Of a DNA stretch of 64,000 bases, positions 6,318 through 49,843 are shown in pieces; within the stretch, counting starts at the first letter, position 1; every line of letters begins with the position of its first letter. The notes below the pieces were generated by a model that did not search any database, had not been told where the DNA came from, and worked only from the letters and a program-made list of their open reading frames with translations. Position numbers and translations under genes: made by a program. Source of the stretch: Candidatus Daviesbacteria bacterium (lineage in GTDB: Bacteria; Patescibacteriota; Microgenomatia; Daviesbacterales; UBA10151); NCBI GenBank assembly GCA_016195715.1, contig JACPZA010000031.1:60336-124335 (forward strand), read 5' to 3'.

Positions 6318-6374
6318 AAAGCAATATTAACAAATTGCTTAAAAAAAAGTTAAACTTGACAGTGTTTTAAAAGT

Positions 6375-9017: not shown

Positions 9018-9094
9018 ACTAGATAATGTTTACCAAATTCTTACTTGCATCTTACATGTTTGTTACATATACTAATACTGTAATTTAAGTTTTT

Positions 9095-11650: not shown

Positions 11651-11664
11651 TGAAATAGACTGCC

Positions 11665-13836: not shown

Positions 13837-13838
13837 AT

Positions 13839-25795: not shown

Positions 25796-27499
25796 ATGGC
25801 GCTAGCTGCTCAAACGATTGAAGAAATTTTGCTTAAACAAGGTTATTTACGTCCTGATCAAGTCTCAGCTATTAAGCTTGAAAGTATTAATTCTGGTCAA
25901 CCTTCGGAAAAAATTATCAGAGAACACAACTTTGCCACGGCAGAACAAGTGGCTCAAGCCCTCTCAATATTACTTGGGGTGCCATTTATCAAGTTAGAAA
26001 ATAAAGCCATTTCCACAGAAGTTTTAAATTTAATTCCTGAAGCTGTGGCAAAGCATTACCAACTAATCCCCTTTGATCGTCAGCTGGATAGGTTATCAGT
26101 AGCTATGGTTGATCCACTGGATTTACAAGTCATTCAATTTATTGAGAAAAAATCCGGACTTAAAGTTATTCCTTTTTTAGGCTATACCGAAGATATTTTA
26201 AAAGCTATCTCCAGCCAGTATTCTCAAAACCTAACCTCTGAAGTCACCTCAGCTCTAAAAGAAGTTTCTGAACTGCAGCGAGCAAATGCCCCTCAAGAGT
26301 CGATTGATCAAGCAGAAGTAATCCGCGAAGCACCAGTTTCCAATATTGTTACCCAACTTTTGGAGTATGCAGTTAAGACCCGAGCTTCAGATATTCATAT
26401 TGAACCTCAAGAAAATCAAACTAGAGTTAGATATAGAATTGATGGAATTTTGCACGAAAAAGTTATTTTACCTAAAAAAGTTCACGAAGCAGTTGTTTCT
26501 CGAGTTAAAATTTTATCAAATTTAAAAATTGATGAACGAAGGTTACCGCAAGATGGTAGGTTTACTTTTGAGTTTGCTGGAGCAGAGATTGATTTGCGTA
26601 TCTCCACTCTGCCGACAGTTTTTGGAGAAAAAGTAGTATTAAGATTGCTGCCAAAATCTGCTCAAGCACCCTCACTGACTGATTTAGGACTGCGTGGCAG
26701 TTCTCTAAAAACCCTAGAAACTCAACTCCTTCGTACCCATGGAATTATTTTAATCTGTGGCCCAACAGGTTCAGGTAAAACCACCACTTTATATTCAGTT
26801 TTATCGAAACTTTCAACAACAAAAGTAAATATTTTAACAATTGAAGATCCGGTTGAGTATGAAATTCCTGGAGCAAATCAAGTTCAAGTTAATCCCCAAA
26901 TTGGCTTAACCTTTGCCTCAGCTCTGCGGTCTTTTTTGCGCCAAGACCCAAATATTATCCTGGTTGGAGAGATTCGAGATACTGAAACTGCAGAGTTGGC
27001 TATTCAAGCTGCACTAACTGGTCACCAAGTTTTTTCTACACTACATACTAATACTGCATCAGGCGCTCTGCCTAGAATGCTAGACATGGGAACTGAGCCA
27101 TTTTTACTAGCTTCAGCTGTGAACGGAATAGCTGGGCAGAGAATTTTGCGAAAAATTTGTGAGCATTGTCGGGTTTCATTTACTCCTCCACCTGAGGTGA
27201 TTGAAAATATTAAAGTTACCTTAGGAAATCTAATCTCAACTAACAAACCAATCCAGCTTTACAAAGGTCAGGGTTGTAATTTTTGTAATCACTCTGGTTA
27301 TTTAGGACGGACAGGAATTTATGAAGTTTTATCAGTTTCAGAAAAAATTATGAAATTAATTTTAGAGCGAGCTTCATCCGTTGCTATTGAAGAACAAGCC
27401 GTATCTGAAGGGATGATTACTTTAAAACAAGATGGCTATTTAAAAGTTTTAGAAGGGGTGACCACTTTTGAGGAAGTTTTGCGTGTAGCCCAAGATTAA
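25796..27499 (+). CDS. pilB: Type IV pilus assembly ATPase PilB (GspE family)
   Basis: There is an N-terminal GSPII_E N-domain. Walker A LICGPTGSGKTTTLYS, the Asp/His boxes and a tetracysteine motif (CEHC..CNFC) are present. Confidence 0.9.
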   Translation: MALAAQTIEEILLKQGYLRPDQVSAIKLESINSGQPSEKIIREHNFATAEQVAQALSILLGVPFIKLENKAISTEVLNLIPEAVAKHYQLIPFDRQLDRLSVAMVDPLDLQVIQFIEKKSGLKVIPFLGYTEDILKAISSQYSQNLTSEVTSALKEVSELQRANAPQESIDQAEVIREAPVSNIVTQLLEYAVKTRASDIHIEPQENQTRVRYRIDGILHEKVILPKKVHEAVVSRVKILSNLKIDERRLPQDGRFTFEFAGAEIDLRISTLPTVFGEKVVLRLLPKSAQAPSLTDLGLRGSSLKTLETQLLRTHGIILICGPTGSGKTTTLYSVLSKLSTTKVNILTIEDPVEYEIPGANQVQVNPQIGLTFASALRSFLRQDPNIILVGEIRDTETAELAIQAALTGHQVFSTLHTNTASGALPRMLDMGTEPFLLASAVNGIAGQRILRKICEHCRVSFTPPPEVIENIKVTLGNLISTNKPIQLYKGQGCNFCNHSGYLGRTGIYEVLSVSEKIMKLILERASSVAIEEQAVSEGMITLKQDGYLKVLEGVTTFEEVLRVAQD

Positions 27500-27502: not shown

Positions 27503-28576
27503 ATGAATATTCAACAACTACTTGACTTAACAATTGGCTCAAATGCTTCTGATTTACACCTTTTGGTGGGCTCTCCACCAACTTTAAGAATTGATGGAAA
27601 TTTAGCACCAATTAACGGTATGAATGTAATTTCTCAATCTGATTTTGAGAGTTTGGTTTTTGCGCTAATTTCTCCTTACCAAAAAGATCTTTTTTTGAGA
27701 GAATGGGAACTTGATTTAGGTTTTGATTTTGCTGGTAAAGCCAGGTTTAGGGTCAATATTTATAAACAAAGAGGAGCACTAGCCGCATCGCTTCGACTTA
27801 TACCCAAAACTATTCGATCTATTGAAGAGACCGGTTTACCGCCAATAGTTTCTAAATTAACCGAGCTTGAACAAGGTTTAGTTTTGGTGACTGGCCCAAC
27901 AGGTCATGGCAAATCCACAACTTTAGCTGCCTTAATTAATCAAATTAACAAAACCCGCTCAGTCCATATCTTAACTATTGAAGATCCAATTGAGTTTGTT
28001 TATCCAGAAGGTAAAGCTCTGATCTCTCAACGAGAACTAAACTCTGATACTAAAGCTTGGAATAACGCCCTAAAGTCTGCTTTAAGAGAAGATCCAGATG
28101 TAGTGTTAATTGGTGAGATGAGAGACTATGAAACAATTGCTTCAGCCATGACTATTGCTGAAACTGGACATTTAGTATTGGCAACGCTGCACACTAACTC
28201 TGCCTCTCAAAGTATTGATCGTATTATTGACGTTTTTCCTGAAAATCAACAACCTCAAATTCGCTCTCAGCTGGCTGAGGTGATTGAAGCAATTATCTCC
28301 CAGCGTTTAATCCCCACGATTAATCCTGGACGAGTTTTAGCAGCTGAGTTACTTTTTGCAGTCCCAGCTCTGCGAGCTATTATTCGGGAGGGAAAAAATC
28401 ACCTAATTGATAATTTAATTCAAACCTCAGCTGAAGCTGGAATGATTGGTTTGGAAACGTCTCTCGCGACATTAGTTCGGGAGGGATTAATTACTTCGGA
28501 GGTAGCTTTAAATTATGCTCTTAAACCGCAATTACTTAACAAATTTTTAGGTACTGATACTACTTCTTCAGCTTAA
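27503..28576 (+). CDS. pilT: Twitching motility ATPase PilT
   Basis: Walker A VLVTGPTGHGKSTTLAALI is present. Length is 357 aa, with the AIRNLIRE-like motif AIIREGK. Confidence 0.9.
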   Translation: MNIQQLLDLTIGSNASDLHLLVGSPPTLRIDGNLAPINGMNVISQSDFESLVFALISPYQKDLFLREWELDLGFDFAGKARFRVNIYKQRGALAASLRLIPKTIRSIEETGLPPIVSKLTELEQGLVLVTGPTGHGKSTTLAALINQINKTRSVHILTIEDPIEFVYPEGKALISQRELNSDTKAWNNALKSALREDPDVVLIGEMRDYETIASAMTIAETGHLVLATLHTNSASQSIDRIIDVFPENQQPQIRSQLAEVIEAIISQRLIPTINPGRVLAAELLFAVPALRAIIREGKNHLIDNLIQTSAEAGMIGLETSLATLVREGLITSEVALNYALKPQLLNKFLGTDTTSSA

Positions 28577-28579: not shown

Positions 28580-29788
28580 ATGCCAGTTTACAATTATATT
28601 GCTAAAGATCTCAGCGGAGTTGAGCATAAAGGTACGATTGAAACCGCAGACGAACACAGCGTCAGTCGAATTTTAAGTAAAAAATCCCTGATTGTTATCT
28701 CAATCAAAGAAAAAAAAGGTAACGCTGCCAATATTTTAAATAAATTTTTAAACAAAATCTCCTTTACCCAAATTGTGATTATTACCAGGCAACTTGCCAC
28801 TATGATTGAAGCAGGTTTAGTTTTGTCTGAGGCACTAGATATCTTAGAAAGCCAGCAATCTAATAAAAAACTCAAAGACATTTTAGGAGAAGTTTCCAGA
28901 GATGTTAAATCTGGTTTAGATTTAGCTTCGGCTTTAAGGAAACATCCAGATGCTTTTCCAGCACTTTACTGTAATTTAATCAAAGCTGGTGAGTCATCAG
29001 GTAAATTAGATGATGTTTTGTTACAAATGGCGACCAGTTTAGAAAAAGATCGAGAGTTTAGAAGTCGTATCCGAGGTGCGATGATTTATCCAATTGTTAT
29101 CTCGATAATGATGGTTTTAGTTGGAGGAGTAATGATCTTTTTTGTCATCCCAAAACTAACTTCGCTTTATACTCAATCTAATATTGAACTTCCCCTGCCT
29201 ACTAAAATTTTGATTGGTACTTCTAACTTTTTTCTAGGATATTGGTGGATGATTTTAATTTTTATAGTTGTTGGAGGAATTGCTTTTAGAAGATGGACCA
29301 GCACTCCTTCAGGCAAATATATTTTTGATAGGCTTTTACTTAGAATTCCAGTAGTAAGTAAAATTATCGAAGGAACATCTTTAACTAATTTTACTCGGAC
29401 TTTTGGATTACTAATTGCTTCGGGTATACCAATTTTAGATTCGTTGGTGATTGTTAAAGATGTGATGGGAAATGCGGTTTACAAAAAAGCTATCGAAACT
29501 AGTGCTCAAGGGGTAGAGCGAGGTTTACTTTTCTCAACTCAACTTGAGCAGATAGGAATTTTTCCCAGGATTGTTCCGCAGATGTTTCGGGTTGGTGAAG
29601 AAACTGGCAAAGTTGATGATATCGCTTTTAAATTATCAGATTATTTTGAATCCGAGTCAGACCATTTGGTTAAAAATTTAACTGTTATTATTGAACCAGT
29701 AATTTTAGTAATTTTAGGTATCGGAGTAGGTTTTTTAGTTTTATCCATTATTCTGCCAATTTACAAACTAACCAATTCGTTCTCGTAA
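28580..29788 (+). CDS. pilC: Type IV pilus platform protein PilC (GspF family)
   Basis: Two GspF repeats, three TM segments and a length of 402 aa. Confidence 0.9.
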   Translation: MPVYNYIAKDLSGVEHKGTIETADEHSVSRILSKKSLIVISIKEKKGNAANILNKFLNKISFTQIVIITRQLATMIEAGLVLSEALDILESQQSNKKLKDILGEVSRDVKSGLDLASALRKHPDAFPALYCNLIKAGESSGKLDDVLLQMATSLEKDREFRSRIRGAMIYPIVISIMMVLVGGVMIFFVIPKLTSLYTQSNIELPLPTKILIGTSNFFLGYWWMILIFIVVGGIAFRRWTSTPSGKYIFDRLLLRIPVVSKIIEGTSLTNFTRTFGLLIASGIPILDSLVIVKDVMGNAVYKKAIETSAQGVERGLLFSTQLEQIGIFPRIVPQMFRVGEETGKVDDIAFKLSDYFESESDHLVKNLTVIIEPVILVILGIGVGFLVLSIILPIYKLTNSFS

Positions 29789-29879
29789 AGTATAAGTTTA
29801 ACCACTTGACTGAGTGTTAACCATTGTGTCTAAAATAAGGTTAGAGATAAAACTCTAAATTTTAAGGAGGTGAGATAGT

Positions 29880-30452
29880 TTGAGAAAATCTGCCCAAATC
29901 CGATTAAATCGGACCCAAGGGTTTACGTTAGTTGAACTCTTAGTAGTCATTGCAATTATTGCTATATTAGCAGCTGTGGTAGTCTTAATCATTAATCCAC
30001 TGGAATTAACTAGAAGAGGTCGGGATGCTGCTAGATTAACTGATTTATCTAATTTACAACAAGCCATTAATGTAGCTGTTCAAGAAGCCACTAACTCTGG
30101 CTCTCAGATTCTGTGTAATGGTGCTGCGTATCCTTGTTTTGGTAACTCTTCTACAGGTGGTAGAGGTGCGGATGGAACAGGTTGGGTGAAAGTTAATCTT
30201 GGCTCGCAACAAAGTGTATCAGTCCCAACTTTACCAGTTGATCCAGTTAACTCAACAGGCGCAGCAGGTTATCATTATGTTTACTGTGCTGATAAACCAT
30301 CAGGTTCACTTGATGGATGGGAGATAGATACTAAGCTTGAGTCTGCTCAGCAAAGTCCGAAGATGCTGCAGGATGGTGGAGATGATAGCAATCTTTACGA
30401 AACTGGTTCTAATTTATTGCTAGTTGGCGTTTCCACAGGATGTACGTATTAA
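29880..30452 (+). CDS. Type IV pilin (candidate major pilin), prepilin leader ...NRTQG|FTLVELLVV
   Basis: A TTG start with a strong SD (AAGGAGGTGA) 7 nt upstream. A class III signal with Gly-1, Phe+1 and Glu+5 is present. A C-terminal Cys pair is present. Confidence 0.8.
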   Translation: MRKSAQIRLNRTQGFTLVELLVVIAIIAILAAVVVLIINPLELTRRGRDAARLTDLSNLQQAINVAVQEATNSGSQILCNGAAYPCFGNSSTGGRGADGTGWVKVNLGSQQSVSVPTLPVDPVNSTGAAGYHYVYCADKPSGSLDGWEIDTKLESAQQSPKMLQDGGDDSNLYETGSNLLLVGVSTGCTY

Positions 30453-30458: not shown

Positions 30459-31367
30459 ATGGAAATATTTAGCCTAGGTTTTATATTTGGAGCGATACTG
30501 GGAAGTTTTACAAAAGCACTGGCTGATAGATCTTTGACTAAAGTATCGTTTTTTGGAAGGTCGTATTGTAATCATTGTCAAAAACAATTGGTTTGGTACG
30601 ACCTTTTTCCAATTATTTCTTACCTACTTATTAAAGGTAAGTGCCGCTACTGCAAAAAAGCTATTCCGCTTGAGTATTTATTAGTTGAAGTTTTAATGGG
30701 GGTTTTAATAGCTTGGCTTTTTTTACAAATTATCCCAACCACTTTTTTAACTTTATCCCCTATCAGCCAAAGTTTAAAAATTATTGAGGTTATCTTTAAA
30801 TCTTTTGTTTTGCTAGTTTTAGTTAGTGTTTTTTTAACAGATATCAAAAAAGGTCTAATTCCTGATCGGATTACCTACCCTGCTGTAATGATTACTTTTA
30901 TATATTTGGTGGCATTAACGATTTATAAATCAGTTATTTTATATTTTTATTTAAAAAACAATACTTTTGGAAAATTTCTTCTCCCCCCTCATTCGGACTA
31001 TTTTTTTAGGCATGTCCTCTACTCCGCTGATCCATTGATTTCCGGGGTATTGTCTGCGCTAGGGTTAGGGTTATTCTTTGGCTTAATAATTATTTTGACA
31101 AAAGGCAGAGGTATGGGTGGTGGAGATTTAAAATTAGCTATTTTTATGGGGCTGACACTAGGCTTTCCTAGTAGTCTAGTTGCTATAATTTTAGCTTTTT
31201 TATCTGGTTCAATAGTTGGTTTAGTTTTGCTGGTTATAAAGATAAAACGTTTTGGTCAAACCATTCCCTTTGGGCCTTTTCTAGCGCTGGGATCTATCAT
31301 GGCACTTTTTTGGGGGCAGCAAATTTATGATTGGTATTTGAATTTTTCAAAAGGGTCAATATTTTAA
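30459..31367 (+). CDS. pilD: Prepilin peptidase PilD (A24 family)
   Basis: The N-terminal zinc-binding CxxC..CxxC (CNHCQKQL..CRYCKKAI) is followed by a polytopic membrane domain with the conserved Asp-containing GGGDLKL motif. Confidence 0.85.
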   Translation: MEIFSLGFIFGAILGSFTKALADRSLTKVSFFGRSYCNHCQKQLVWYDLFPIISYLLIKGKCRYCKKAIPLEYLLVEVLMGVLIAWLFLQIIPTTFLTLSPISQSLKIIEVIFKSFVLLVLVSVFLTDIKKGLIPDRITYPAVMITFIYLVALTIYKSVILYFYLKNNTFGKFLLPPHSDYFFRHVLYSADPLISGVLSALGLGLFFGLIIILTKGRGMGGGDLKLAIFMGLTLGFPSSLVAIILAFLSGSIVGLVLLVIKIKRFGQTIPFGPFLALGSIMALFWGQQIYDWYLNFSKGSIF

Positions 31368-31461
31368 AATTTAGTAGCTAAATTGGGGTATTGACAGCTT
31401 AAAAAAAAGATGTAAGAGTAGATATATAAGAGAAAAATAAATTTAAGAAATTTTTCAGAAA

Positions 31462-31935
31462 ATGCTAACCCAACTGCCCAAACAATTTAAATCATCCAAA
31501 GGTTTCACATTAGTAGAGTTGTTAGTTGTAATTGCAATTATTGCTATATTAGCAACTGTTGGTTTGGTAATTTTCAGTGGTCAACAAAAAAATGCTCGAG
31601 ATTCAAAAAGAAAATCTGATATAGATGCTATCGCAACTGCTTTAGAAAATGGCAAAACTCCAGGCGGAACTAGTTATAATGGTCTAGCAATTAATCAGTT
31701 TGTTCAAAATGCAGTTCCACTTGACCCGGGAAGTAATGGAGCTGTAAATGCACAATATAGCTATACAGGATCTGCTGTGGCTGCTCCAAGCTGGGATAAT
31801 ACAACTCAAATAAATCCCACTGGTTGGAGTACAGTCGGTGTAGGTACAGGAGCAGGTGCAACAGCTTGGACTGTTTGTGCTCATTTAGAAACATCAACAA
31901 CTGCAGTATATTGTAAGTCAAATGCGCAAAGTTAA
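31462..31935 (+). CDS. Type IV pilin paralog 1
   Basis: The leader is ..SSKG|FTLVELLVVIAIIAIL. The motif GQQKNARDSKRKSDIDAI is shared with neighbouring paralogs. There is a C-terminal disulfide loop (C..C). Confidence 0.8.
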   Translation: MLTQLPKQFKSSKGFTLVELLVVIAIIAILATVGLVIFSGQQKNARDSKRKSDIDAIATALENGKTPGGTSYNGLAINQFVQNAVPLDPGSNGAVNAQYSYTGSAVAAPSWDNTTQINPTGWSTVGVGTGAGATAWTVCAHLETSTTAVYCKSNAQS

Positions 31936-31969
31936 AACTATGTATATAAAATCTATAAATAGTACAAAA

Positions 31970-32563
31970 ATGAATTTTAGCAGAGGCTTTACGTTAGTAG
32001 AATTAATGGTAGTCATTGCAATTATTGCCATCTTAGCTGCTATAGCAATTACAGTTTTTAGTGGTCAACAAAAAAATGCCAGAGATTCACAAAGAAGAGC
32101 TAATATAGATGCGATAGCTAATGCACTAGAGAGTAAAAAAGGGTCAAACGCAACATATCAGATCATATCTAGTAGTGATTTTACTTCACAAACTTTTCCA
32201 ACAGATCCAGGCTATGCAGGAGAACCCTCAAGGTATAGTATTTGTTACAATAAGACATCAGGTTCATCATTAGCACAAAATATTAGTCCAAATACAACTA
32301 CTGCAGCAAGCAGATTAGGTGGATGGCCAACAGGACATGCAGGTCCTACTGGTGCTACAGCTAATTCGACTTGTAAGGATGGAACAATAACTGATGGTCC
32401 CTTAGCTAACGCTAATGATTGGCCTCAAGTGGATACTGTCGTAACTACTGCGGCATTCTTTACTAGTGGTTTAGGTACATTTAACTGGGCAATTTGTGCT
32501 AAGCTAGAAGGAGCTGCTGGGACTCAAGCATCGCCATATTATTGTAGGACTAACAGCCAGTGA
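31970..32563 (+). CDS. Type IV pilin paralog 2 (start chosen at internal Met giving leader MNFSRG|FTLVEL)
   Basis: The track ORF starts at 31922 and overlaps the previous gene. The Met at 31970 gives a canonical short prepilin leader. The shared motif GQQKNARDSQRRANIDAI is present. Confidence 0.7.
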   Translation: MNFSRGFTLVELMVVIAIIAILAAIAITVFSGQQKNARDSQRRANIDAIANALESKKGSNATYQIISSSDFTSQTFPTDPGYAGEPSRYSICYNKTSGSSLAQNISPNTTTAASRLGGWPTGHAGPTGATANSTCKDGTITDGPLANANDWPQVDTVVTTAAFFTSGLGTFNWAICAKLEGAAGTQASPYYCRTNSQ

Positions 32564-32579
32564 AGAAAGGAAGTAAAAA

Positions 32580-33080
32580 ATGGATAGATTACATAAAAAG
32601 ATAAATATAATAAATAATAAAGGCTTTACCTTGATTGAGTTAATGGTTGTAGTAGTAATAATTGCTATTTTAGCAATTGTGGGTATAACTGTTTATAGTG
32701 GCCAACAAGCCAGTGCCAGAGATAGTAGAAGGAGACAAGATATTGATTCTATTGGAAACGCATTAGAAGCTCATTTTAATCCAGTTGCTAATGCAAATTG
32801 TAGTAGTGGTGCTGCAGGAACTTATTGTTCCATTGATTCAAATTTACAAGCGACATGGTTTGCGGCGGGTAGTGTCCCAGTTGATCCGATTGGGAGCAAT
32901 GGGTATGTTTATACTTACACTCCTGCTGGTGCAGGAACTGTCCTTTATGCGGGTGCTTCTACTTATGTAGTTTGTGCAAAATTGGAAAATACAAATGGAA
33001 CTGGAAATTCAAGTAGCAATACTTCTATTAATACAGTTGGTCCACTACAATACTATTGTAGACAAAATCAACAAACTTAA
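32580..33080 (+). CDS. Type IV pilin paralog 3
   Basis: The leader is ..NNKG|FTLIELMVVV. The motif GQQASARDSRRRQDIDSI and a C-terminal Cys pair are present. Confidence 0.8.
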   Translation: MDRLHKKINIINNKGFTLIELMVVVVIIAILAIVGITVYSGQQASARDSRRRQDIDSIGNALEAHFNPVANANCSSGAAGTYCSIDSNLQATWFAAGSVPVDPIGSNGYVYTYTPAGAGTVLYAGASTYVVCAKLENTNGTGNSSSNTSINTVGPLQYYCRQNQQT

Positions 33081-33150
33081 TTTCCCTGATCCTCTCTTTT
33101 TTACTAATTTCACTTTATTTCTCATCAACTAATGTGATACATTAAATTTA

Positions 33151-33642
33151 ATGCTCAAATCTTTAGGATTTACACTTATTGAATTAATGGTAACTATTGC
33201 CATTATTGGAATTTTATCAGCTGTGGGGCTTACTGTTTTTTCTGGTACTCAAAAAAATGCTAGGGATGCAAAAAGAAAGGGAGATATTGATGAGATAACT
33301 AAAGCTATGGAGCTTCATTATGGCTATTTTAAACCTAATCTCTATGCTGGTCTTTGTCAGATAAATAAAGCTGGCGCTGCACCAGGGGATTTTGATTGTA
33401 CTCAGTGGTTTCCTACTGGCAATATACCCCAGGATCCTAATTCAGGACCTACAGTTGGTTATTGCGCCTTTTATGACACTTCTCCACCTCCACCGAACAC
33501 CACTTGTAATAATACAAATACAAATAGATATTTAAAATCAGGTCCTGGCCCAATACCAGCTATTGATCAAACTTACTGGGTAATTTGTGCCACCTTAGAA
33601 AACCCTTCAGGATTAACTTATTGCCGCTACAATCAACGTTAA
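33151..33642 (+). CDS. Type IV pilin paralog 4
   Basis: The leader is MLKSLG|FTLIELMV. The motif GTQKNARDAKRKGDIDEI and C-terminal cysteines are present. Confidence 0.8.
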   Translation: MLKSLGFTLIELMVTIAIIGILSAVGLTVFSGTQKNARDAKRKGDIDEITKAMELHYGYFKPNLYAGLCQINKAGAAPGDFDCTQWFPTGNIPQDPNSGPTVGYCAFYDTSPPPPNTTCNNTNTNRYLKSGPGPIPAIDQTYWVICATLENPSGLTYCRYNQR

Positions 33643-33643
33643 T

Positions 33644-34099
33644 ATGAATATGGATTTTAAAAAAGGCTTTACGCTAATTGAAATTATGGTAGCTATTACT
33701 ATTATTGGAGTGGTTTTTGGGGTGATTATTACCTCAGCTGGGGCAATTCAGCGCAACTCCAGGGATACTAAAAGAAAATCTGATTTAAGTAATATTCAAG
33801 GAGCGCTAGAACAATATCATGCTGATGCTGGCTATTATCCATATAACCTACCTTCTTCAGGTTCTTTTAAAAGTGACGATGGTCAAAAAACTTATTTGCA
33901 AAATGTCCCAGTTGATCCCCAAACCTCCAATCCATATAAATATGATGGTTATACAAATGACGGATTGACTTTATGCGTAGGTCCTTCTGATTGTGTAAAC
34001 TACTGCTTATATGCTGATCTTGAAAATACTCCCACCCAGGATCCAAGTACTACCTGTACCCCACCGGCAGGTTACAACTATTATGTAACTCAGCCTTAA
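33644..34099 (+). CDS. Type IV pilin paralog 5
   Basis: The leader is ..FKKG|FTLIEIMVAI. The motif RNSRDTKRKSDLSNI and a C-terminal Cys cluster are present. Confidence 0.75.
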   Translation: MNMDFKKGFTLIEIMVAITIIGVVFGVIITSAGAIQRNSRDTKRKSDLSNIQGALEQYHADAGYYPYNLPSSGSFKSDDGQKTYLQNVPVDPQTSNPYKYDGYTNDGLTLCVGPSDCVNYCLYADLENTPTQDPSTTCTPPAGYNYYVTQP

Positions 34100-34133: not shown

Positions 34134-34727
34134 ATGTGTTACGTTAAAGTAATGTTTAGGCTTTTTTGCCCAAGCTTAAAAACAGCCTCTTTGGGTTTTA
34201 CTCTGGTTGAAATAATAGTAGCTATAGCTATTTTATCTCTTGCAGCTGTTGTAGCTATACCCGGTTTTAATAAATTTAACCAAGATCAAGTCTTAAGCTT
34301 AGCAACTGGTGAATTAATTACTACTTTGCGCCAAGCCGAAGGTAATGCCCAATCTGGAGTCAAATGTGGCGATAATAATGGTAGTCCCTCAATTAACTGG
34401 TATATCTCTTTCTCAAGTTTTAATGACTACTATGAACTTAAGGCAACCTGCCAAACTGATCCTATTCTAACAATTTATTCTAAAAAAAAAGTCACTCCAG
34501 ACTCCATAACTGTTTCAACTATTTGTAGTGATGGTTCAACTCCTACAACTGGGGATTTTATAACTTTTAATAGCACAACTTATCCTAGTTCCCCGCCAGT
34601 TTATCCTTGTGTTGCTCCTGCAATTTTTATGATTAAGTTGACCTCACTAAAATCCAATAAATCTGATTATGTTCGAGTTGATCAAGGCGGAGCAATTTAT
34701 GAAACACAATCCACTCCAGGTTCTTAA
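34134..34727 (+). CDS. Minor pilin/pseudopilin (GspH/FimT-like)
   Basis: The leader is ..KTASLG|FTLVEIIVAIAIL, followed by a beta-rich domain. Confidence 0.6.
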   Translation: MCYVKVMFRLFCPSLKTASLGFTLVEIIVAIAILSLAAVVAIPGFNKFNQDQVLSLATGELITTLRQAEGNAQSGVKCGDNNGSPSINWYISFSSFNDYYELKATCQTDPILTIYSKKKVTPDSITVSTICSDGSTPTTGDFITFNSTTYPSSPPVYPCVAPAIFMIKLTSLKSNKSDYVRVDQGGAIYETQSTPGS

Positions 34728-35229
34728 ATTAGAATCTGGTCAATCATTACTAGAAATAACTGTTGCTTTATCTGTGGCAGCAATTGCTATTGGCGCTTTA
34801 ACTATTACTACTTTAATTGGCTTAAAAAATAGCCAGTTTTCTCAAAATCAAGTTCTAGCCACTAAATATGGCCAAGAAGAGCTAGAAATTATTCGATCGA
34901 TGCGAGATCGCAACATTTGTGTACAATCTGGATCGGTGAAGTATTTTTGGAATGATAGTGATCTGACTCTCCAACCAACCCTTTGGGGGAGTGATTTTGG
35001 TAGTCAAACTTTTTATTTAGTTAGCAATCCTCCTGATGGGGTGTGTCAGCTGACTGACGTAGCTCCTGGTACTGGAACTGGGGAACTAGCTTTAGCTAAT
35101 AAATTTAAACGAACAGCTTCAATTATTAATATATCTGCTGATCAAAAAAAATTCACAGTTAAAGTAGCTTGGAGTGATTCATCTGGAACTCATCAATCAA
35201 ATTTAGAAACGATACTCTCAAATTATTAA
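34699..35229 (+). CDS. Pilin-like protein, leader MKHNPLQVLKLESG|QSLLEITVAL
   Basis: Gly-1 and Glu+5 are present. The internal Met at 34699 is preferred over the track start 34669 because it avoids a long overlap. Confidence 0.5.
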   Translation: MKHNPLQVLKLESGQSLLEITVALSVAAIAIGALTITTLIGLKNSQFSQNQVLATKYGQEELEIIRSMRDRNICVQSGSVKYFWNDSDLTLQPTLWGSDFGSQTFYLVSNPPDGVCQLTDVAPGTGTGELALANKFKRTASIINISADQKKFTVKVAWSDSSGTHQSNLETILSNY

Positions 35230-35238
35230 TTACAAATT

Positions 35239-35850
35239 ATGAATTATAAATTAAAAAATACAGGTTTTACACTGATTGAAGCTTTAATTGCAGTGACTAT
35301 TTTTGCAGTGATTGGTATTGTGGCTGCAGATTTACTAAATAGAAGTTTTCAAGGTAATAATAAAGCTACTTTGGTTTCAAAACTTAAACAAAATGGTCAA
35401 TCAGCACTAAATATTATGGGAGAAACAATTAGAAGTTCTGATGCAGTAATTTGCACTGGAACTTATCCTGACGATCCAGCTTATTCAAATGATACTATCG
35501 TAATTGTTAAAAATGGGGTTTATACTAGATTTAGGTTCTATTTGCAAAAAGCCTTAAGTGCTAATAATGGTTACATCGCTCAGGATTTAATTACCCTAAC
35601 TGGTCAAGACAGTCAAGTTTTATGTAGCGCAACACAAATACCAATGAGTACTAACCAGTCCTATTTAACTGATACTGATATTAATAATGGAATTTCAATT
35701 AAAAGTGGTGTGTTTGATTATGTAAAAAAAGATGGGGTTAAAGATTTAGTAACTATCAAATTCAGTATCTCTCAAGGGGTTAATGCAATTAAAGGAGTTG
35801 ATACCCAAACTAATGATGTTTCTTTTGAAACAACAGTCACACTAAGATGA
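35239..35850 (+). CDS. Minor pilin (prepilin-type N-terminal cleavage/methylation domain)
   Basis: The leader is ..KNTG|FTLIEALIAVTIFAV. Confidence 0.6.
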   Translation: MNYKLKNTGFTLIEALIAVTIFAVIGIVAADLLNRSFQGNNKATLVSKLKQNGQSALNIMGETIRSSDAVICTGTYPDDPAYSNDTIVIVKNGVYTRFRFYLQKALSANNGYIAQDLITLTGQDSQVLCSATQIPMSTNQSYLTDTDINNGISIKSGVFDYVKKDGVKDLVTIKFSISQGVNAIKGVDTQTNDVSFETTVTLR

Positions 35851-36734
35851 AAAACCAAACAGGCCAAGTAATAATAATACTGCTGCTCATAATATTAGTT
35901 GCTTTAACCATTGGAGTAGCAATTGTTCAAAACTCACTTTCTGATGTTTCAACTTCTACTAAAACTGAACAATCATCCCGAGCTTTTTCCGCTGCTGAAG
36001 CTGGAATTGAGCAAGCACTAATTACTAATACTTCTGGACCTGTTAGTTTGGATAATAGTTCAACAGCTGATATTAATGTACTTTTAGATTTACCAGCTAA
36101 TGCCTCTACTGCTTTGGAATATCCCCCAATAACTAAAGCAGATTTTGCCCAATTTTGGCTAGCAGATCCAACTACTCAAGCAACTTTTTTTAATGGCAGC
36201 AGTTTTCAAGTTTATTTTGGCAATTGTTCACAAAATCCTTGCGAAGCAGTTTCTGATAAGCCAGCAATTGAAGTGGATACAGTTATCAAAGATTCACTCA
36301 CTGGCAATTATCGTTGGGACAAACAGTATTTTGATTCAGATGGCTCAAGAACTAATACTAATAACTTTCAAAAAATTAATGGTGCAGGATGTGATAACAA
36401 TATGGGTGGAGGAAGCACCATTAATGCCAATACCACTAACTCTCCAACCAGTCAATTTTATTGTTATGTTAATGTTTTATACTCAAGCGTCTCAACAGAT
36501 ATTCCTATTTTGGTAAGAGTGAGAATTCTTTACTCTTCAACAGCTCAAAAAATTGCTTTGATGCCTATACCTGGCAATAATGGTAAGGGTTTGCCTGCCC
36601 AAGCTACAACTTATACCTCAGTTGGTAAATCTGGAGAATCTATTAGACAGGTTAAAATCTTTAAAGAGCAAAACGTAGTTCCTTATTTTTTTGATTTTGC
36701 CATATTTTCAACAGCACCTATCACCAAACAATGA
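35847..36734 (+). CDS. PilX-like minor pilin / pilus-associated protein
   Basis: An N-terminal leader KNQTG|QVIIILLLIILVAL with a hydrophobic helix, followed by a Cys-containing globular domain. Its start overlaps the previous stop. Confidence 0.45.
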   Translation: MKNQTGQVIIILLLIILVALTIGVAIVQNSLSDVSTSTKTEQSSRAFSAAEAGIEQALITNTSGPVSLDNSSTADINVLLDLPANASTALEYPPITKADFAQFWLADPTTQATFFNGSSFQVYFGNCSQNPCEAVSDKPAIEVDTVIKDSLTGNYRWDKQYFDSDGSRTNTNNFQKINGAGCDNNMGGGSTINANTTNSPTSQFYCYVNVLYSSVSTDIPILVRVRILYSSTAQKIALMPIPGNNGKGLPAQATTYTSVGKSGESIRQVKIFKEQNVVPYFFDFAIFSTAPITKQ

Positions 36735-37156
36735 GTAACTTTAAAAGATATTTAAGGGAAAAAGGTTTTTCAATAATTGAAATCTTGCTCGTTGTAATGA
36801 TTGTTGGATTTATTACTTCTTTAGTCTTACTTCTACCCTCTTCAATTGGTTTGGTTGGAGATAGTAAAAGTACCGCACTTGCTAAAGACATTGCTAGCCG
36901 ACAAATGGAGTCGTTAAGGGCAAAGGGTTATGATAATTTGCTTGGACTTCGGGGTCCAGCTACTAATATTTCTGATTCTAGAGTAAGCCAACTTCAAAGC
37001 GGCAGTGCCACTTTTACTATCTCAGATTGCCCAATAGATATTTGCACTAATAATGAGCAAATTGTTAAAGCAATAGTGGCTGTTAACTGGAAAGAGAAAA
37101 ATCAAACCAAAACTGTTAGTTTATCTACTTTGATTGCAAAAGGAGGTCTGCAGTGA
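36731..37156 (+). CDS. Minor pilin (prepilin-type)
   Basis: The leader is ..REKG|FSIIEILLVVMIVG. Confidence 0.6.
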   Translation: MSNFKRYLREKGFSIIEILLVVMIVGFITSLVLLLPSSIGLVGDSKSTALAKDIASRQMESLRAKGYDNLLGLRGPATNISDSRVSQLQSGSATFTISDCPIDICTNNEQIVKAIVAVNWKEKNQTKTVSLSTLIAKGGLQ

Positions 37157-37728
37157 GAAAATCTCTGGGTTTTTCATTATTTGAAGTAATTTTAGTAATT
37201 GGTTTAGGAGCTGTGGTGGGGAGTTTAATTTTAAGATTATTGACAGTTAATAGCGGGGTTTATAACGATCAGATTGCCCAGGTTAATCAAGGTTTAGGAT
37301 TAAATAGTAGCATTTCTCAAATTGAATCAGATCTTAAACCAGCCGCCGGAGTTGTGACAAGCTATACCAATGGTTCAAATACATATTCCAGCTCTTTAAA
37401 CTCTTTGGTTTTAAAACTTGCTTCGCTAGATAGCCAAGGAAAAGTTTTGGCTAATACTTTTGACTATATAGTAATCGTTGCTGATTCCTCTAATCCTAAA
37501 ATATTAAGACGAAGAATTTTTGCCGATCCTTCAAGTTCCCGTAAAAATGCCAATCAGGTACTACTGACTAATTTGTCTTTAATTAATTTTTTTTATTACG
37601 ATCAAAATGATTTAATTGTTTCCCCATCAACTGCAGTGAAAGTAAATTTTGTGCTAAATACTGCCAGTAATATTGGTAAATCTTCAATAAGTAGTGCTAG
37701 TAGTGCTGTTAACTTGCGTAATCAATAG
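37153..37728 (+). CDS. Minor pilin (prepilin-type)
   Basis: The leader is MRKSLG|FSLFEVILVIGL. Confidence 0.6.
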   Translation: MRKSLGFSLFEVILVIGLGAVVGSLILRLLTVNSGVYNDQIAQVNQGLGLNSSISQIESDLKPAAGVVTSYTNGSNTYSSSLNSLVLKLASLDSQGKVLANTFDYIVIVADSSNPKILRRRIFADPSSSRKNANQVLLTNLSLINFFYYDQNDLIVSPSTAVKVNFVLNTASNIGKSSISSASSAVNLRNQ

Positions 37729-39737: not shown

Positions 39738-40778
39738 TTGGCTGCTCAAATAAAAATTGGTTTAGATATTGGTTTAGCATTAATTAAAGTTGTTGTTTTA
39801 TCAACCAAAGATACACCGCGCCGACTTTTATCATTGGGTCAAATCGCCTCTCCTCAACCAGGAATTATTTCAGATTCAGATCTAGATTTAGAGTCGGTTG
39901 CAAATGCTATAAAAAATTTAATGACAGAGATTAAAGCTCCAGAAAAACAAGTCATTGTGGCTTTACCTGAATCAAAAATCTTCACTAGAGTAATTTATGA
40001 CCTGCCTTTTTTGACAAATGAAGAGTTAGCTCAAGCAATTAAATATGCCGCCGAAGAGTTTGTACCTATGCCAATTACCCAGGTGAATCTAAACTATCAA
40101 GTTATTTTTAGAAGTAAAGAAAAAGGCCCCAAAAGTCGAACAGTAGTTTTTGTAGTAGCTTCACCTAAAAACATGGTTAATAAATATTTAAAAGTTTTGA
40201 GCATGGCAGACTTAAAACCTATTGCCATAGAAACTGAGTTGATTGCTTCGGCAAGAGCTTTGGTTGGTAGTAATCCTTTTTCACCAACGACTTTAATTGT
40301 TCAATTTGGGGCAACTACCACGGATTTTGCCGTCGTATCGGAAGGATTGATATTGCTAACTCGTTCTATTTCCACTGGGGCTGTTGCATTGACTCGAGCA
40401 ATTGCTCAAGCTTTTAATTTTGAACTAATTCAAGCTGAGGAATACAAAAAAGTCTATGGAATATTGGAAGATCAGCTGGAGGGAAAGTTATTCCAAGTTT
40501 TAAAACCAATTGTGGATGTAATTTTGTCTGAAACTAGAAGAGTGATTCAAGCCCATGAGACTCAAAATCCCCAAAGAGCCGTCAAGCGAGTTGTTTTAAC
40601 CGGTGGTGGCGCCAAATTACCTGGTTTAGTAGTTTATTTAGCTAATTCGCTAGGTTTAGAAGTTCAAGAAGCAGACCCTTGGGAGGGTTTGAGTAAAGAC
40701 CCAGCCTTAAAAAATAAACTTGTTGCTGATGCGCCGGTGTATTCTGTAGCCGTTGGGTTAGCGTTAAGGGAAGATTAA
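39738..40778 (+). CDS. pilM: Type IV pilus assembly protein PilM (actin-like ATPase fold)
   Basis: A TTG start. Motifs IGLDIGLALIKVVVL and the C-terminal ..LTGGGAKLPGL.. fit the actin/FtsA-like PilM pattern. Confidence 0.8.
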   Translation: MAAQIKIGLDIGLALIKVVVLSTKDTPRRLLSLGQIASPQPGIISDSDLDLESVANAIKNLMTEIKAPEKQVIVALPESKIFTRVIYDLPFLTNEELAQAIKYAAEEFVPMPITQVNLNYQVIFRSKEKGPKSRTVVFVVASPKNMVNKYLKVLSMADLKPIAIETELIASARALVGSNPFSPTTLIVQFGATTTDFAVVSEGLILLTRSISTGAVALTRAIAQAFNFELIQAEEYKKVYGILEDQLEGKLFQVLKPIVDVILSETRRVIQAHETQNPQRAVKRVVLTGGGAKLPGLVVYLANSLGLEVQEADPWEGLSKDPALKNKLVADAPVYSVAVGLALRED

Positions 40779-40779
40779 A

Positions 40780-41319
40780 ATGAATAAAATTTCTATTAAT
40801 TTACTTCCAGCAGAGTTAGGCGTTGCTGAAAAAAAACAGTTCCGCAAAATTTGGATAATTCGAATTACTGTTGTGGTGATCGGAGTAATTAGCGCTCTAG
40901 CAGCTGTAGCTTTGGGGTTGGTAATTTTTAAAAATAATGAGCAATCTCAGGTAAATCTTCGATTAAAGCAAGCTGAGCAGCAAGTTGCATCTTTAAATGA
41001 ACAGGAAGGATATTTAACACTTCTTCGTCAAAGATTAGACAGCGTTATTACCTTACAACAAAAGGAAAATAAGCAAACTCAAGGATTAAGTTCTATTACT
41101 CAAATCGTTCCCGAAGAAGTTGCTATTAATTCTTTAGCAGTTGATCGCAACGGAACAATTCTTCTGAGTGGACTAAGCAACGGTGTAATTGGGTTAAACT
41201 CACTGGTTAACGCTTTGGGTGATAGCACAAAAAATAATTTTACCAAAACTAACATTGATAGCTTGTCTAAAGGGACAACAGATTCTTATAGATTTGATAT
41301 AAGTACCAAACTAAAATGA
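40780..41319 (+). CDS. pilN: Type IV pilus assembly protein PilN
   Basis: The conserved N-terminal INLLP motif (KISINLLPAE) is followed by a TM helix and a coiled-coil. Confidence 0.7.
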   Translation: MNKISINLLPAELGVAEKKQFRKIWIIRITVVVIGVISALAAVALGLVIFKNNEQSQVNLRLKQAEQQVASLNEQEGYLTLLRQRLDSVITLQQKENKQTQGLSSITQIVPEEVAINSLAVDRNGTILLSGLSNGVIGLNSLVNALGDSTKNNFTKTNIDSLSKGTTDSYRFDISTKLK

Positions 41320-42023
41320 AGCTTAAATTACCTCAACTGCCTTCTGGTGCAGAAAGATATCAGCTATTAATTTGGCCATTAGTTGGGATAGGTATATCAA
41401 TTCTGTTGTTGGTACTGGTGATTATTCCTCAATTACTTCGGATTTGGGCAACTAATCAAAAAATTGAAACCACCAAAGATAAGATTACAACTTTAAATCA
41501 AAAATATGATCAACTGAAAAGAATTGATCTTAATGAATACAAACAAAACTTAAATGAAGCTTTAATTGCTCTGCCTTTGGATAAAGATATTCCATCAGGA
41601 ATTAGCCAGATTCAAACAGTAGCTTTAAATGATCAAATACAAATTAGTGGTCTGATTGTTGGTAGTGGTACTACTACAAGTAATCCGGCATCTTATCAGT
41701 TTAAAATAGAGGGGGTTGGCAGTTTAGATTCAGTTAAAAAATTTATTGCAGATATTCAAAAAGGTCCAAGGGTTATGAGTCTTGATTCAGTTGAGTTAAG
41801 CAGTGGCAATAAGGAAGGATCGGTTTATAGTGTTAATTTAGGTATCACGACTTATTCACAAGTTCAGGAAACTAAGCTTGGTCCACTTGATCAACCGGTT
41901 GTGAATTTAAATGATAAAGAAATAGCAGTTTTAACTGCAATCAAGCAAAGTACTCAGAATACTCAAATTATTTCTCAAAATGGTACGACTGGAGCTAAAG
42001 GTAAATCAGATCCGTTTCAGTAA
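41316..42023 (+). CDS. pilO: Type IV pilus assembly protein PilO
   Basis: A bitopic protein with a TM helix, a coiled-coil and a C-terminal ferredoxin-like domain. The gene is translationally coupled (ATGA) to pilN. Confidence 0.6.
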   Translation: MKLKLPQLPSGAERYQLLIWPLVGIGISILLLVLVIIPQLLRIWATNQKIETTKDKITTLNQKYDQLKRIDLNEYKQNLNEALIALPLDKDIPSGISQIQTVALNDQIQISGLIVGSGTTTSNPASYQFKIEGVGSLDSVKKFIADIQKGPRVMSLDSVELSSGNKEGSVYSVNLGITTYSQVQETKLGPLDQPVVNLNDKEIAVLTAIKQSTQNTQIISQNGTTGAKGKSDPFQ

Positions 42024-48435: not shown

Positions 48436-48744
48436 ATGGCTCAAGGATTCCCTGAGATGAGTGGTAGTAGAGTTTTTGTAGATGCGCTTGCTGCAGCTTA
48501 TAGAGGTGAAAGAATGTTTGGACCTCTTCAGAGGAGAAGTAAACCACCATTCATTAGGTTAAACTCTCACCAAATTGAACAAATTGCTGGCTTTGTAGGA
48601 ACCATTACTGCTTTATCTCTAGTAGCAAAACATCCAAATAAAGATAGGCTAGAATTTTTAATACCCAGAGTTGTTGAAGGTTGGAATGTAGGTGTTTATG
48701 CTGCTAGAACAATCGAAGGATTAATGTACCCACCTACTACTTAG
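48436..48744 (+). CDS. Hypothetical protein
   Basis: A 102-aa ORF in the same GC-elevated segment. Confidence 0.3.
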   Translation: MAQGFPEMSGSRVFVDALAAAYRGERMFGPLQRRSKPPFIRLNSHQIEQIAGFVGTITALSLVAKHPNKDRLEFLIPRVVEGWNVGVYAARTIEGLMYPPTT

Positions 48745-49843
48745 AAGTTAATTTTTCAATCTCTTGCAAAGCTGCTTGCCTTTTGGGATCTTCAAAATAC
48801 TTTCTAGCTGGTTCAAGTTTTTTTATTAACCATTCAGCAACAGCTAACTTTAAATCTTGAGGATGAAGTTTTTTCTCTGCATAATCTTTTTCTAAATCTT
48901 GATAAGAATTATAACTTAAATCCCCTCCCCATTTTGGATCCCTTTTAATAGTAAAAGTAGTGTTTTCTTCATAAAAAATTAAATGCTTAACCCAGTCTAA
49001 AATAGGGTTAAATTCTATCACTCCTTCTGGAGCATAGGCACCATTGATTTTTCTTTTGATAGTCTCAGAATCATCATGGATAAAAATAGCAGAATCAGGT
49101 TTGGACTTGCTCATTTTTGCAGCTTCTAAATCCATAACTTTTTTGCCAGTTTCTGAGTCGTCAACTAAAATAGGAGGTAAAAGTCCTTGCAATAAATGAG
49201 TATGAATAGCTATTGGTTTTTGGTAACCTAATTCAACTGCGCAGTCTCTGGCAACAATATGAACATTTCTTTGATCAGTTCCAGCATGAGCAATATTAAT
49301 TCCCATCATAAAAATATCTGCAGACTGCATTGCTGGATAAATCAACATAGCAGAATCAGTTACCTCAGCCTCTTTTCTGCCCATAATAGTAGTACTTCTG
49401 AGCATTCTAGATAAGGTTGTGGCTTTAGAGACCCTTACCACTGTTGCCCAATAATCTAATCCTAGCTTTTGATAAAGTTCACTGCCCAAAACAAAATTAA
49501 TTTTTTCAGGATCTGCTCCAACACAAAGAGCGCTAGCTTTAAATGCTTCCATTAAATAATTTTTGCCAACTTTGGTAATAGTTTCTAGTTCGCCATCTAA
49601 TTTTTTATTTAACCAAGCGTGCCAGTCAGCCAAGAAAACCGTCACCTCTACTCCAGCTTCTTGCAGGTCTTTAATTTTCATTAAAGTATACAGACCTTGA
49701 CCAATATGCAAAATTCCTGAAACTTCATAACCAATATAATGTTTTAAAGGGGTTCCAGAATCTATTAAAGCTTTTAGTTCTTCTTCAGTTAAAACTTCTT
49801 CTAGATTTCTGGTTATTAATTTAATTTTTTCTTCAGTTGTCAT
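48737..49843 (-). CDS. tyrS: Tyrosine--tRNA ligase, archaeal/eukaryotic type (class Ic; TrpRS not fully excluded)
   Basis: A HIGH-like motif (GILHIGQG), an ADWHA motif (archaeal TyrRS has ADLHAYLN), YPAMQSADI...GTDQRNVHIVARD, and KMSKS followed by ..KRKINGAYAPEG (compare archaeal TyrRS KKAYCPAG). Confidence 0.65.
   Translation of the reverse strand: MTTEEKIKLITRNLEEVLTEEELKALIDSGTPLKHYIGYEVSGILHIGQGLYTLMKIKDLQEAGVEVTVFLADWHAWLNKKLDGELETITKVGKNYLMEAFKASALCVGADPEKINFVLGSELYQKLGLDYWATVVRVSKATTLSRMLRSTTIMGRKEAEVTDSAMLIYPAMQSADIFMMGINIAHAGTDQRNVHIVARDCAVELGYQKPIAIHTHLLQGLLPPILVDDSETGKKVMDLEAAKMSKSKPDSAIFIHDDSETIKRKINGAYAPEGVIEFNPILDWVKHLIFYEENTTFTIKRDPKWGGDLSYNSYQDLEKDYAEKKLHPQDLKLAVAEWLIKKLEPARKYFEDPKRQAALQEIEKLTSK

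Follow-up and report, generated by a model that had tools for sequence, protein, structure and literature searches.

An invariant pilin and a copy-number-variable pilin slot in the type IV pilus operon of Candidatus Daviesbacteria

The type IV pilus operon considered here belongs to an uncultured groundwater member of Candidatus Daviesbacteria (Microgenomates, in the Candidate Phyla Radiation, CPR) and lies in a stretch of 64,000 nucleotides (nt) of contig JACPZA010000031.1, hereafter the window. It encloses positions 31462-34099, where five consecutive + strand open reading frames (ORFs), here P1 to P5, are found exactly where an original prediction, made from the sequence alone, had placed an array of five tandem paralogous pilins. 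Upstream are pilB, pilT, pilC, a further pilin gene, P0, and pilD; downstream are six small pilin-like genes, m1-m6, a gene for a protein of 609 amino acids (aa), and pilM, pilN and pilO. This order, as predicted, is supported by Pfam matches, and the cognate PilD and the PilB/PilT/PilC/PilM/PilN/PilO machinery are encoded in the same operon as the pilins. The locus had also been called unusually compact, but the order is identical in every related locus long enough to show it (murC-gyrB-holB, pilB pilT pilC P0 pilD, a slot of differing content, P5 m1-m6, the gene for a protein of ~600 aa, pilM pilN pilO, trmD) and is the Daviesbacteria norm; CPR bacteria generally have a compact pilBTC...MNO locus without pilQ (PMC6744442). 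The central observation is that P0 is nearly invariant across related genomes and the interval between pilD and P5 varies widely in the number and kind of its pilin genes.

All five genes of the array encode type IV prepilins. Each matches Pfam N_methyl (PF07963) with 30-36.6 bits against a gathering cutoff of 21.2 (E 3e-7 to 3e-9) and passes the cutoff of NCBIfam TIGR02532. A class III (prepilin) signal is present in all of P0-P5, with leaders of 6-22 aa and G-1, F+1 and E+5 throughout, and in P1-P5 the leader Gly is followed by F-T-L-[VI]-E. In the NCBI records P3 (MBI3486386.1) and P4 (MBI3486387.1) are both named "type II secretion system protein". The intergenic gaps from P1 through P5 are -14 (or +34), 16, 70 and 1 nt. 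The start of P2 is ambiguous: ATG 31922 gives a 22-aa leader and a 14-nt overlap with P1, ATG 31940 a 16-aa leader and ATG 31970, the NCBI call, a 6-aa leader, MNFSRG, and no Shine-Dalgarno (SD) sequence is seen at any of these three candidates. Two motifs had been proposed as common to the five. One of them, G-FTL(V/I)EL, fits P1-P4, but P5 reads GFTLIEI; the other, GQQKNARDS(K/R)R(K/R).DID(A/S)I, is exact in P1 alone, approximate in P2-P4 and poor in P5 (GAIQRNSRDTKRKSDLSNI).

Three zones are apparent in P1-P4 and their relatives (V-type pilins below), as read from the alignment of the paralogs and from an alignment of 34 family members. They are a conserved N-terminal helix, alpha1 (G-FTLVEL...SGxQKNARDxRRxxDIxAIxxALE), a hypervariable middle, and a conserved C-terminal element, W-x-[VI]-C-A-x-L-E...Y-x-C-[RK]-x-N-x-Q, whose two Cys, C139 and C151, are invariant in the 34 sequences. 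Among P1-P4 the proportion of nonsynonymous differences (pN) is 0.13-0.30 in alpha1, 0.44-0.60 in the middle and 0.32-0.39 in the C-terminal part. Hypervariability had been assigned to a C-terminal disulfide loop; the hairpin and both its Cys are in fact conserved, and only the length of the loop between them (11, 15, 27 and 11 residues in P1-P4, with a family median of 12 and fixed flanks) and its filling vary. An AlphaFold2 (AF2) model predicts the lollipop fold of pilins, with a long alpha1 helix on a small beta-sheet head. On this model the variable middle maps to the alpha-beta loop and first strands, and the invariant Cys pair, from which the C-terminal hairpin is predicted to be disulfide-stapled, falls on the last two predicted strands (137-141 and 149-153). 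P2 and P3 show a slight excess of N-x-S/T sequons (24-30 per 1000 aa), much of it explained by an Asn-rich composition, and no oligosaccharyltransferase was seen.

P5 stands apart. Instead of five paralogs there are four, P1-P4, and one member of a separate, conserved orthologous group. The family hidden Markov model scores P1-P4 at 134-191 bits (P1 highest, 191) and P5 at 67 bits, and every syntenic locus has a positional ortholog of P5, 35-45% identical, directly ahead of its first minor pilin. The GspG model TIGR01710 matches P5 over positions 1-104 of its 134, with a score of 53 bits that falls short of the 88.85 cutoff, and Pfam T2SSG matches P5 weakly. P1-P4 match TIGR01710 with 32-41 bits through alpha1 only, and among the five P5 alone has GspG similarity reaching into the globular domain. 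By these matches and its position P5 is a conserved single-copy GspG-like pilin that groups with the downstream minor-pilin set. An assignment of P1-P5 to GspG itself, the major pseudopilin of the type II secretion system (T2SS), was considered and rejected: no score exceeds the TIGR01710 cutoff, and no secretin was found in the operon, while PilT is present.

P1-P4 do not look like recent copies of one another. Over the first conserved 150 nt, which code for the N-terminus, their DNA is 64-76% identical, no long identical tracts were found among them, and repeat analysis gave no significant inverted repeats or invertible segments. The proportion of synonymous differences (pS) among them is 0.53-0.89, saturated even within alpha1, and the synonymous rate (dS) runs from 0.9 to undefined. 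The ratio of nonsynonymous to synonymous rates (dN/dS), where calculable, is 0.12-0.28 in alpha1 and 0.36-0.69 in the middle, and always below 1. A dN/dS analysis had been suggested with the original prediction, but it turned out to be uninformative, several pairs having undefined dS, and with synonymous sites saturated dN/dS is unable to detect positive selection among the four. In a pool of 209 family members the best matches of P1-P4 are in other genomes, at 45-56% identity, and the co-resident paralogs rank 19th-148th, at 31-47%; an array of recent tandem duplicates was rejected on these ranks and on the pS values. The best relatives of P3 are P0098, L141, L130 and L172 (41-50% identity; L numbers denote our loci), not its neighbors, and the subtype with a loop of 26-30 residues to which it belongs recurs in other loci; those of P4 are L119 (49%) and L136 (44%). 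The genome bearing the closest homolog of P1 (56%) has a PilD only 45-52% identical, and so pilin similarity does not track that of the flanking genes. An exhaustive profile search returned 461 clusters at the 50% identity level (E <= 1e-30), and P1, P2 and P4 are each their own representative at that level of clustering. On this evidence P1-P4 are four old, mutually very divergent lineages of a hyper-diverse Microgenomates pilin family, brought together either through ancient duplication and differential loss, or through allele exchange in the slot, or through both.

Antigenic or functional diversification was originally proposed for the array. Functional or surface diversification fits the hyper-diverse family, the diverged globular parts and the varying slot, but ongoing antigenic-variation switching is not seen. 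A strain-level comparison, suggested as a check on it, came down to four independent assemblies from one project (runs SRR12113388, SRR12113410, SRR12113414 and SRR12113415), which are 100% identical to the window over 30557-33343, that is P1-P3 and part of P4. Furthermore, P1, P3 and P4 are singletons at 90% clustering, with no variants of at least 90% identity among ~15 billion proteins. Together, the identical assemblies and the singletons argue against fast switching of the Neisseria kind; as the samples are probably one population, they are a weak test of longer-term diversification.

Syntenic Daviesbacteria loci were gathered by exact-protein look-ups and by a metagenome scan probing with the C-terminal domain of P0. 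The V-family alignment was also tried as a contig probe and was abandoned, its patterns being those of a generic pilin N-terminus; L005 was the sole true relative among the matches listed. Counting V genes, meaning P1-P4-like genes, in the 29 non-redundant complete slots gives none in 2 loci, one in 19, two in 4, three in 2, four in 1 (this window) and seven in 1, and the length of the pilD-P5 slot ranges from 36 to 8965 nt. The interval is a copy-number-variable slot, and the locus of this window is expanded but of an ordinary type. Locus L093 is the closest relative (PilB 93%, PilC 96%, P0 92% and PilD 85% identical), and in it DNA homology of 83.6% runs from window position 25000 and ends exactly at the pilD stop at 31367. 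A 790-bp insertion with a BrnT/BrnA module (L093 11464-12004) follows pilD there, and homology returns (80%) at window 31378-31505, which comprises the block upstream of P1 and the P1 leader, where the L093 contig ends.

Other slots hold genes of further kinds. That of L087/L088 has RelB and HepT/MNT toxin-antitoxin pairs, an AAA_14/DUF4143 ATPase and two Laminin_G_3 proteins. (In L088 the toxin-antitoxin/ATPase segments are at 10649-11865 and 13275-14570; the Laminin_G_3 protein at 14660-15877 has a prepilin N-terminus and that at 11909-13231 a LamG match only.) The L089 slot encodes a 361-aa pilin-LamG fusion (10522-11607) and that of L148 a 404-aa ORF, a candidate for the LamG type judging from its length; the LamG proteins of the slots are candidate adhesive pilins. 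An MNT/HepT-like pair occupies the L133 slot (2226-3084). In L159 (11671-20381) two V-type pilins are directly followed by an apparent glycosyltransferase/membrane-protein cluster that replaces P5 and the minor pilins; its annotation goes by the appearance of the N-terminal sequences only, and it may serve pilin glycosylation or the cell envelope. L141 (80-8370) and L168 (310-9648) have the P0-pilD module in inverted orientation with respect to pilBTC as well as the V, P5 and minor-pilin genes, with three V-type pilins sitting divergently upstream of P0. With toxin-antitoxin modules and the AAA_14/DUF4143 ATPase right after pilD, the slot behaves like a small integration or defence-island hotspot. 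Contig ends were also compared as a proxy for strain heterogeneity: their hazard per 500 nt is only slightly higher downstream of pilD (0.10-0.23) than it is upstream (0.06-0.16), a comparison confounded by many short contigs.

P0, in contrast to the V genes, is highly constrained. Against five other Daviesbacteria genomes it is 64-67% identical, to be compared with 68-70% for GyrB, 66-71% for PilB and 62-70% for PilT, and with 32-43% for the V genes and 25-45% for the minor pilins. It is 63-92% identical to its best 120 database clusters, over full length and with four invariant Cys, and its mean column identity is 64% along the whole length. Constraint at the level of GyrB and PilB is unusually strong for a subunit of a surface filament. 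An AF2 model of P0 was poor (pLDDT 50; shallow, low-diversity alignment) and was not used.

The expression signals of P0 are also conserved. A sixth pilin at 29880, upstream of pilD and with the strongest SD, had been predicted, and P0 does have such an SD (AAGGAGGTGA, dG -12.4); among the 51 ORFs of the window with 150 aa or more, a dG of -8 or lower is reached by only two, and the median SD dG is ~0. The only strong SDs in the window are those of P0 and of the minor pilin m6 (at 37153, GTG start, AAAGGAGG). When 68 non-identical regions upstream of P0 are compared, 59 contain the pattern TTGACN-~17-TGnTAnAAT, with a background of 0.6%; 64 of the 68 have a GGAGGTGA-type SD, and in 60 a TTG start comes next. 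At or just after the end of pilD a GGGGTATTGACA-N18-AATAAT-like element (TTGACA-N16-19-AATAAT) is found in 27 of 47 loci, again with a background of 0.6%, and in L093 the promoter block of P1 is kept despite the 790-bp insertion. A generic promoter and terminator scan gave no enrichment over shuffles, both promoters surfacing only through comparison across loci. Given these two conserved promoters, transcription of P0 and of the V slot appears in each case to be independent of that of pilBTC and pilD. The coordinates are collected in Table 1.

Table 1. Genes and promoter-like elements of the type IV pilus operon (window coordinates)
Feature	Position	Strand	Details
P0 promoter-like element and SD	29806-29873	+	-35 TTGACT 29806-29811; TG-extended -10 TAAAAT 29831-29836; SD AAGGAGGTGA 29864-29873
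P0, invariant-type pilin	29880-30452	+	190 aa; TTG start; 4 invariant Cys; N_methyl 35.3 bits
Promoter-like block upstream of P1	31385-31419	+	GGGGTATTGACA; perfect -35 31391-31396; weak -10 AAGAGT 31414-31419
P1, V-type pilin, canonical subtype	31462-31935	+	157 aa; leader MLTQLPKQFKSSKG; mature 143 aa; mature Cys 125 and 137
P2, V-type pilin	31970-32563	+	197 aa (NCBI record form); 213 aa if start 31922
P3, V-type pilin, subtype with long (27-residue) Cys-Cys loop	32580-33080	+	166 aa
P4, V-type pilin	33151-33642	+	163 aa; 6 Cys
P5, conserved GspG-like pilin outside the variable family	33644-34099	+	151 aa
pilB	25796-27499	+	Assembly ATPase; Pfam T2SSE 445 bits and MshEN
pilT	27503-28576	+	Retraction ATPase; T2SSE 148 bits
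pilC	28580-29788	+	Platform protein; T2SSF 202 bits
pilD, prepilin peptidase	30459-31367	+	A24_N_bact 87.6 bits and Peptidase_A24 41.8 bits
m1-m6, conserved minor-pilin set (six small pilin-like genes)	34134-37728	+	N_methyl/PilX_N; synteny
609-aa protein, N-terminal hydrophobic segment	37746-39575	+	No Pfam match; 40-46% identity among loci
pilM, pilN, pilO, alignment complex	39738-42023	+	PilM_2 173 bits; PilN 26.5 bits; PilO 47.3 bits

The genes around the slot are conserved to differing degrees. PilB, PilT and PilC are 58-74% identical to their orthologs in related loci, and m1-m6, all syntenic among loci, are 25-47% identical. N_methyl is over its cutoff in m1 and m3 and under it in m5 and m6, m4 matches PilX_N at cutoff, and m2 has no match. 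The 609-aa protein matches NCBIfam choice-of-anchor R over residues 207-341 with 32 bits (cutoff 30), and its L085 ortholog carries DUF7305. A canonical prepilin cleavage motif is absent from it, and it is a putative pilus-associated adhesin or tip protein. Rfam models detected no RNA element within the pilin region. The G+C content over the window is 29-40%. Elsewhere in the window a T-box leader (Rfam RF00230, 97 bits) at 50331-50610 (-) precedes a gene for a class I aminoacyl-tRNA synthetase of the Trp/Tyr type at 48737-49843 (-), and a cluster of probable surface or envelope proteins extends over 2615-13836. Within it are a cohesin-domain protein (2615-3286), a XerC/D-type integrase (4089-5012), a sulfatase/LtaS-like protein of 880 aa (6375-9017) and two large Big_7 Ig-domain proteins (9095-11650 and 11665-13836), the second with a GH53/GH5-like domain.

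The reading favored here, with a probability of about 0.55, is that one pilus machine polymerises an invariant pilin and exchangeable pilins of variable surface, either mixed or as alternative filaments. The adjacent PilD would cleave the prepilins after the conserved Gly, and the PilB/PilT/PilC/PilMNO machine would polymerise them through the hydrophobic alpha1 helix. P0, from its own promoter and with its consensus SD, would supply a constrained structural or functional subunit. The V-type pilins would share the assembly helix and the disulfide-stapled C-terminal hairpin and differ in an exposed middle, and would be co-assembled in one filament or form alternative filaments from the one machine. 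Several pilus surfaces would result, with which the cell could bind different partners or substrates, or evade pilus-specific phages; programmed switching is no part of this mechanism. Precedents for such a design are the PilE1/PilE2 heteropolymer of Streptococcus sanguinis (PMC10628169), the two pilus types of the saccharibacterium TM7x (PMC11623550), and the PilA4 and PilA5 pili of Thermus.

Several points weigh against this reading. Evidence on the identity of the major subunit conflicts: P0 is favored by SD strength, promoter quality, universality and sequence constraint, and P1/P2 by classical type IVa architecture, by the dedicated promoter before the slot and by their content of Gly, Ala, Ser and Thr (GAST), which is 42-44% in P1/P2 (P2 44%), 35% in P0 and 25-29% in cytoplasmic proteins, the range quoted for major pilins being 38-47% (PMC11623550). 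P1, P2, P4 and P5 have no recognisable SD and that of P3 is weak, keeping in mind that most genes in the window likewise lack one, and the -10 of the P1 promoter in the window, AAGAGT, matches the consensus poorly. Two related loci have no V genes in their slots, which suggests that assembly can do without V pilins, unless other parts of those genomes encode them. Lastly, alpha1 is not identical among P1-P4, with 31-36 identities in 48-63 aligned columns (the best pair, P1-P2, has 36/48), and mixed filaments are accordingly not guaranteed. The near-identical alpha1 that marks heteropolymers of the Streptococcus sanguinis type is not found, which lowers the claim to membership of that class and still leaves room for co-assembly.

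Two other assignments of the major subunit have to be set against a shared machine with invariant and exchangeable pilins. P0 could be the sole major pilin, with P1-P4 as low-abundance minor pilins, in a tip or priming complex or sparse along the filament, that serve as interchangeable adhesin modules. The strongest SD in the window, the conserved TG-extended promoter and the universal single-copy state of P0 point that way, as do the two slots without V genes, the LamG-fused pilins in relatives' slots, typical of adhesive minor pilins, and the lectin-like minor pilins of Nanosynbacter lyticus TM7x (PMC11623550). The alternative is unlikely, however, as P5, m1-m6 and the 609-aa protein already make up a full, conserved set of minor pilins downstream, P1-P4 have the size, short leader and predicted D-region disulfide of major pilins and, in P1/P2, the highest GAST, and a dedicated promoter with a consensus -35 precedes the slot. 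Quite unlikely is the possibility of a single functional subunit accompanied by relics, with only P1 significant and P2-P4 poorly expressed, redundant and being lost. One V gene is the commonest state of the slot (19/29 loci), P1 is the best match to the family profile, has the family-typical "LPK" leader and comes first behind the conserved promoter, and P2 and P4 are without an SD or a separate promoter-like element. Yet P2-P4 are intact (leader, G-1, E+5, both Cys and the C-terminal motif) despite saturated synonymous divergence, which indicates long-term purifying selection on each. The low dN/dS of alpha1 where calculable, the full-length relatives that each of P2-P4 has in other genomes, and gaps of 16 and 1 nt, compatible with co-transcription in an operon, are further points against decay.

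Other explanations concern what the array is for or how it arose. That the genes encode pseudopilins of a T2SS-like secretion system or of a DNA-uptake (Com) pseudopilus, and not an extended pilus, would agree with their NCBI name, with sub-threshold GspG and ComG matches through the N-terminal helix, and with competence as a proposed role for type IV pili in CPR bacteria (PMC6744442; PMC10187176). It is improbable: the equivalog matches are far under their cutoffs and, except in P5, confined to alpha1; PilMNO and the retraction ATPase PilT are encoded in the operon, as for type IVa pili; an outer membrane and a secretin, through which secretion would proceed, are lacking (PMC6744442); and cultivated CPR bacteria show thin pili (PMC11623550). 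Recent tandem duplication with positive diversifying selection, the model implied by the original prediction, accords with the adjacency, common strand and common family of P1-P4 and with the high pN of their middle part relative to alpha1. It can be given very little credence when synonymous sites are saturated even in the conserved helix, each copy is nearer to pilins of other genomes than to its neighbors, P3 and P4 belong to subtypes found in other genomes, and dN/dS is below 1 wherever calculable. Programmed antigenic variation of the Neisseria type, with the array as donor cassettes recombining into an expression locus, is largely refuted. Tandem variable pilins with conserved flanks (the N-terminus and the Cys-region motif) would suit it, but every copy, unlike a pilS cassette, is complete and includes the start codon, leader and alpha1, the conserved segments are too far diverged (64-76%) to offer the long identical tracts needed for gene conversion, an invertible element is not found, the four assemblies are identical over P1-P3 and part of P4, and the protein collection has no variants of P1, P3 or P4 at 90% identity or more.

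A bolder extension of the favored reading can be entertained only tentatively, and is more doubtful than not. The pilD-P5 interval would be an exchangeable pilin island in Daviesbacteria and related Microgenomates, a promoter-equipped integration hotspot with gain, loss and perhaps horizontal exchange of divergent pilins, lectin-fused pilins and toxin-antitoxin or defence modules. The island would be the main determinant of which partner cells or surfaces these epibionts recognise, or of susceptibility to pilus phages, with P0 keeping a universal function, for example DNA uptake or retraction-driven motility. If true, this two-tier, invariant-plus-cassette design would resemble the tail-fibre cassettes of phages and provide a genomic handle on the host range of uncultured CPR bacteria. 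Type IV pili are the best-supported means by which CPR bacteria (Patescibacteria) attach to, and depend on, other cells, and nearly all knowledge of them derives from the handful of Saccharibacteria in culture. Should the variable pilins determine attachment specificity, the content of the slot in metagenomes could serve as a marker of partner range or of phage pressure. The locus itself is a well-documented example of the multi-pilin loci known in monoderm and CPR bacteria and introduces no new mechanism.

Among known systems, Pseudomonas aeruginosa has pilA alleles of groups I-V, each group with accessory genes of its own between pilB and tRNA-Thr. It is like Daviesbacteria in having a fixed slot by conserved pilus genes in which very divergent alleles and accessory genes are found, and in the uncoupling of allele similarity from genome relatedness. 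It has one pilA per genome with glycosyltransferases or TfpY/Z, whereas Daviesbacteria slots have up to 4-7 pilins with toxin-antitoxin modules or LamG pilins. In Thermus thermophilus, a diderm that has a secretin, the wide PilA4 and narrow PilA5 pili (PDB 6xxd and 6xxe) are made by one machinery, and the pilin genes do not, as they do in Daviesbacteria, form a variable tandem slot. The pilE/pilS system of Neisseria is similar in having multiple variable pilin sequences flanked by a conserved N-terminus and a conserved Cys region. Its pilS copies are promoterless, lack the N-terminus and have long identical tracts, in contrast to the complete genes of Daviesbacteria, with at most 76% DNA identity and no variation between samples.

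Two further parallels are with a monoderm and with another member of the CPR. The monoderm S. sanguinis builds a heteropolymeric type IV pilus from the tandem major pilins PilE1 and PilE2 (PMC10628169, PDB 8pfb). These are close paralogs with identical alpha1, while P1-P4 are 31-47% identical, with a non-identical alpha1 and saturated synonymous divergence, and Daviesbacteria, unlike S. sanguinis, have an additional invariant pilin, P0, with its own promoter. The saccharibacterium TM7x has 12 pilins, two filament types and two machineries at four loci, and its lectin-like pilins are implicated in host binding (PMC11623550). TM7x and Daviesbacteria, both CPR bacteria, combine pilBTC-pilD-pilMNO and several pilins in one locus; their pilins are much more weakly conserved than the machinery, some of them are lectin-like, and each also has a large pilin-like protein that lacks a canonical PilD signal. 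They differ in that TM7x has two machineries and Daviesbacteria one visible within the 64-kb window, and the invariant-plus-variable-slot layout is not described in the TM7x paper (PMC11623550). Multi-pilin loci, tandem major pilins, strongly divergent CPR pilins and compact operons without a secretin were already known. Specific to the present work are the contrast in Daviesbacteria between an invariant P0 and a promoter-equipped slot whose V genes vary in copy number, the finding that the four V genes of this window are old lineages, and the recognition of P5 as a conserved GspG-like pilin.

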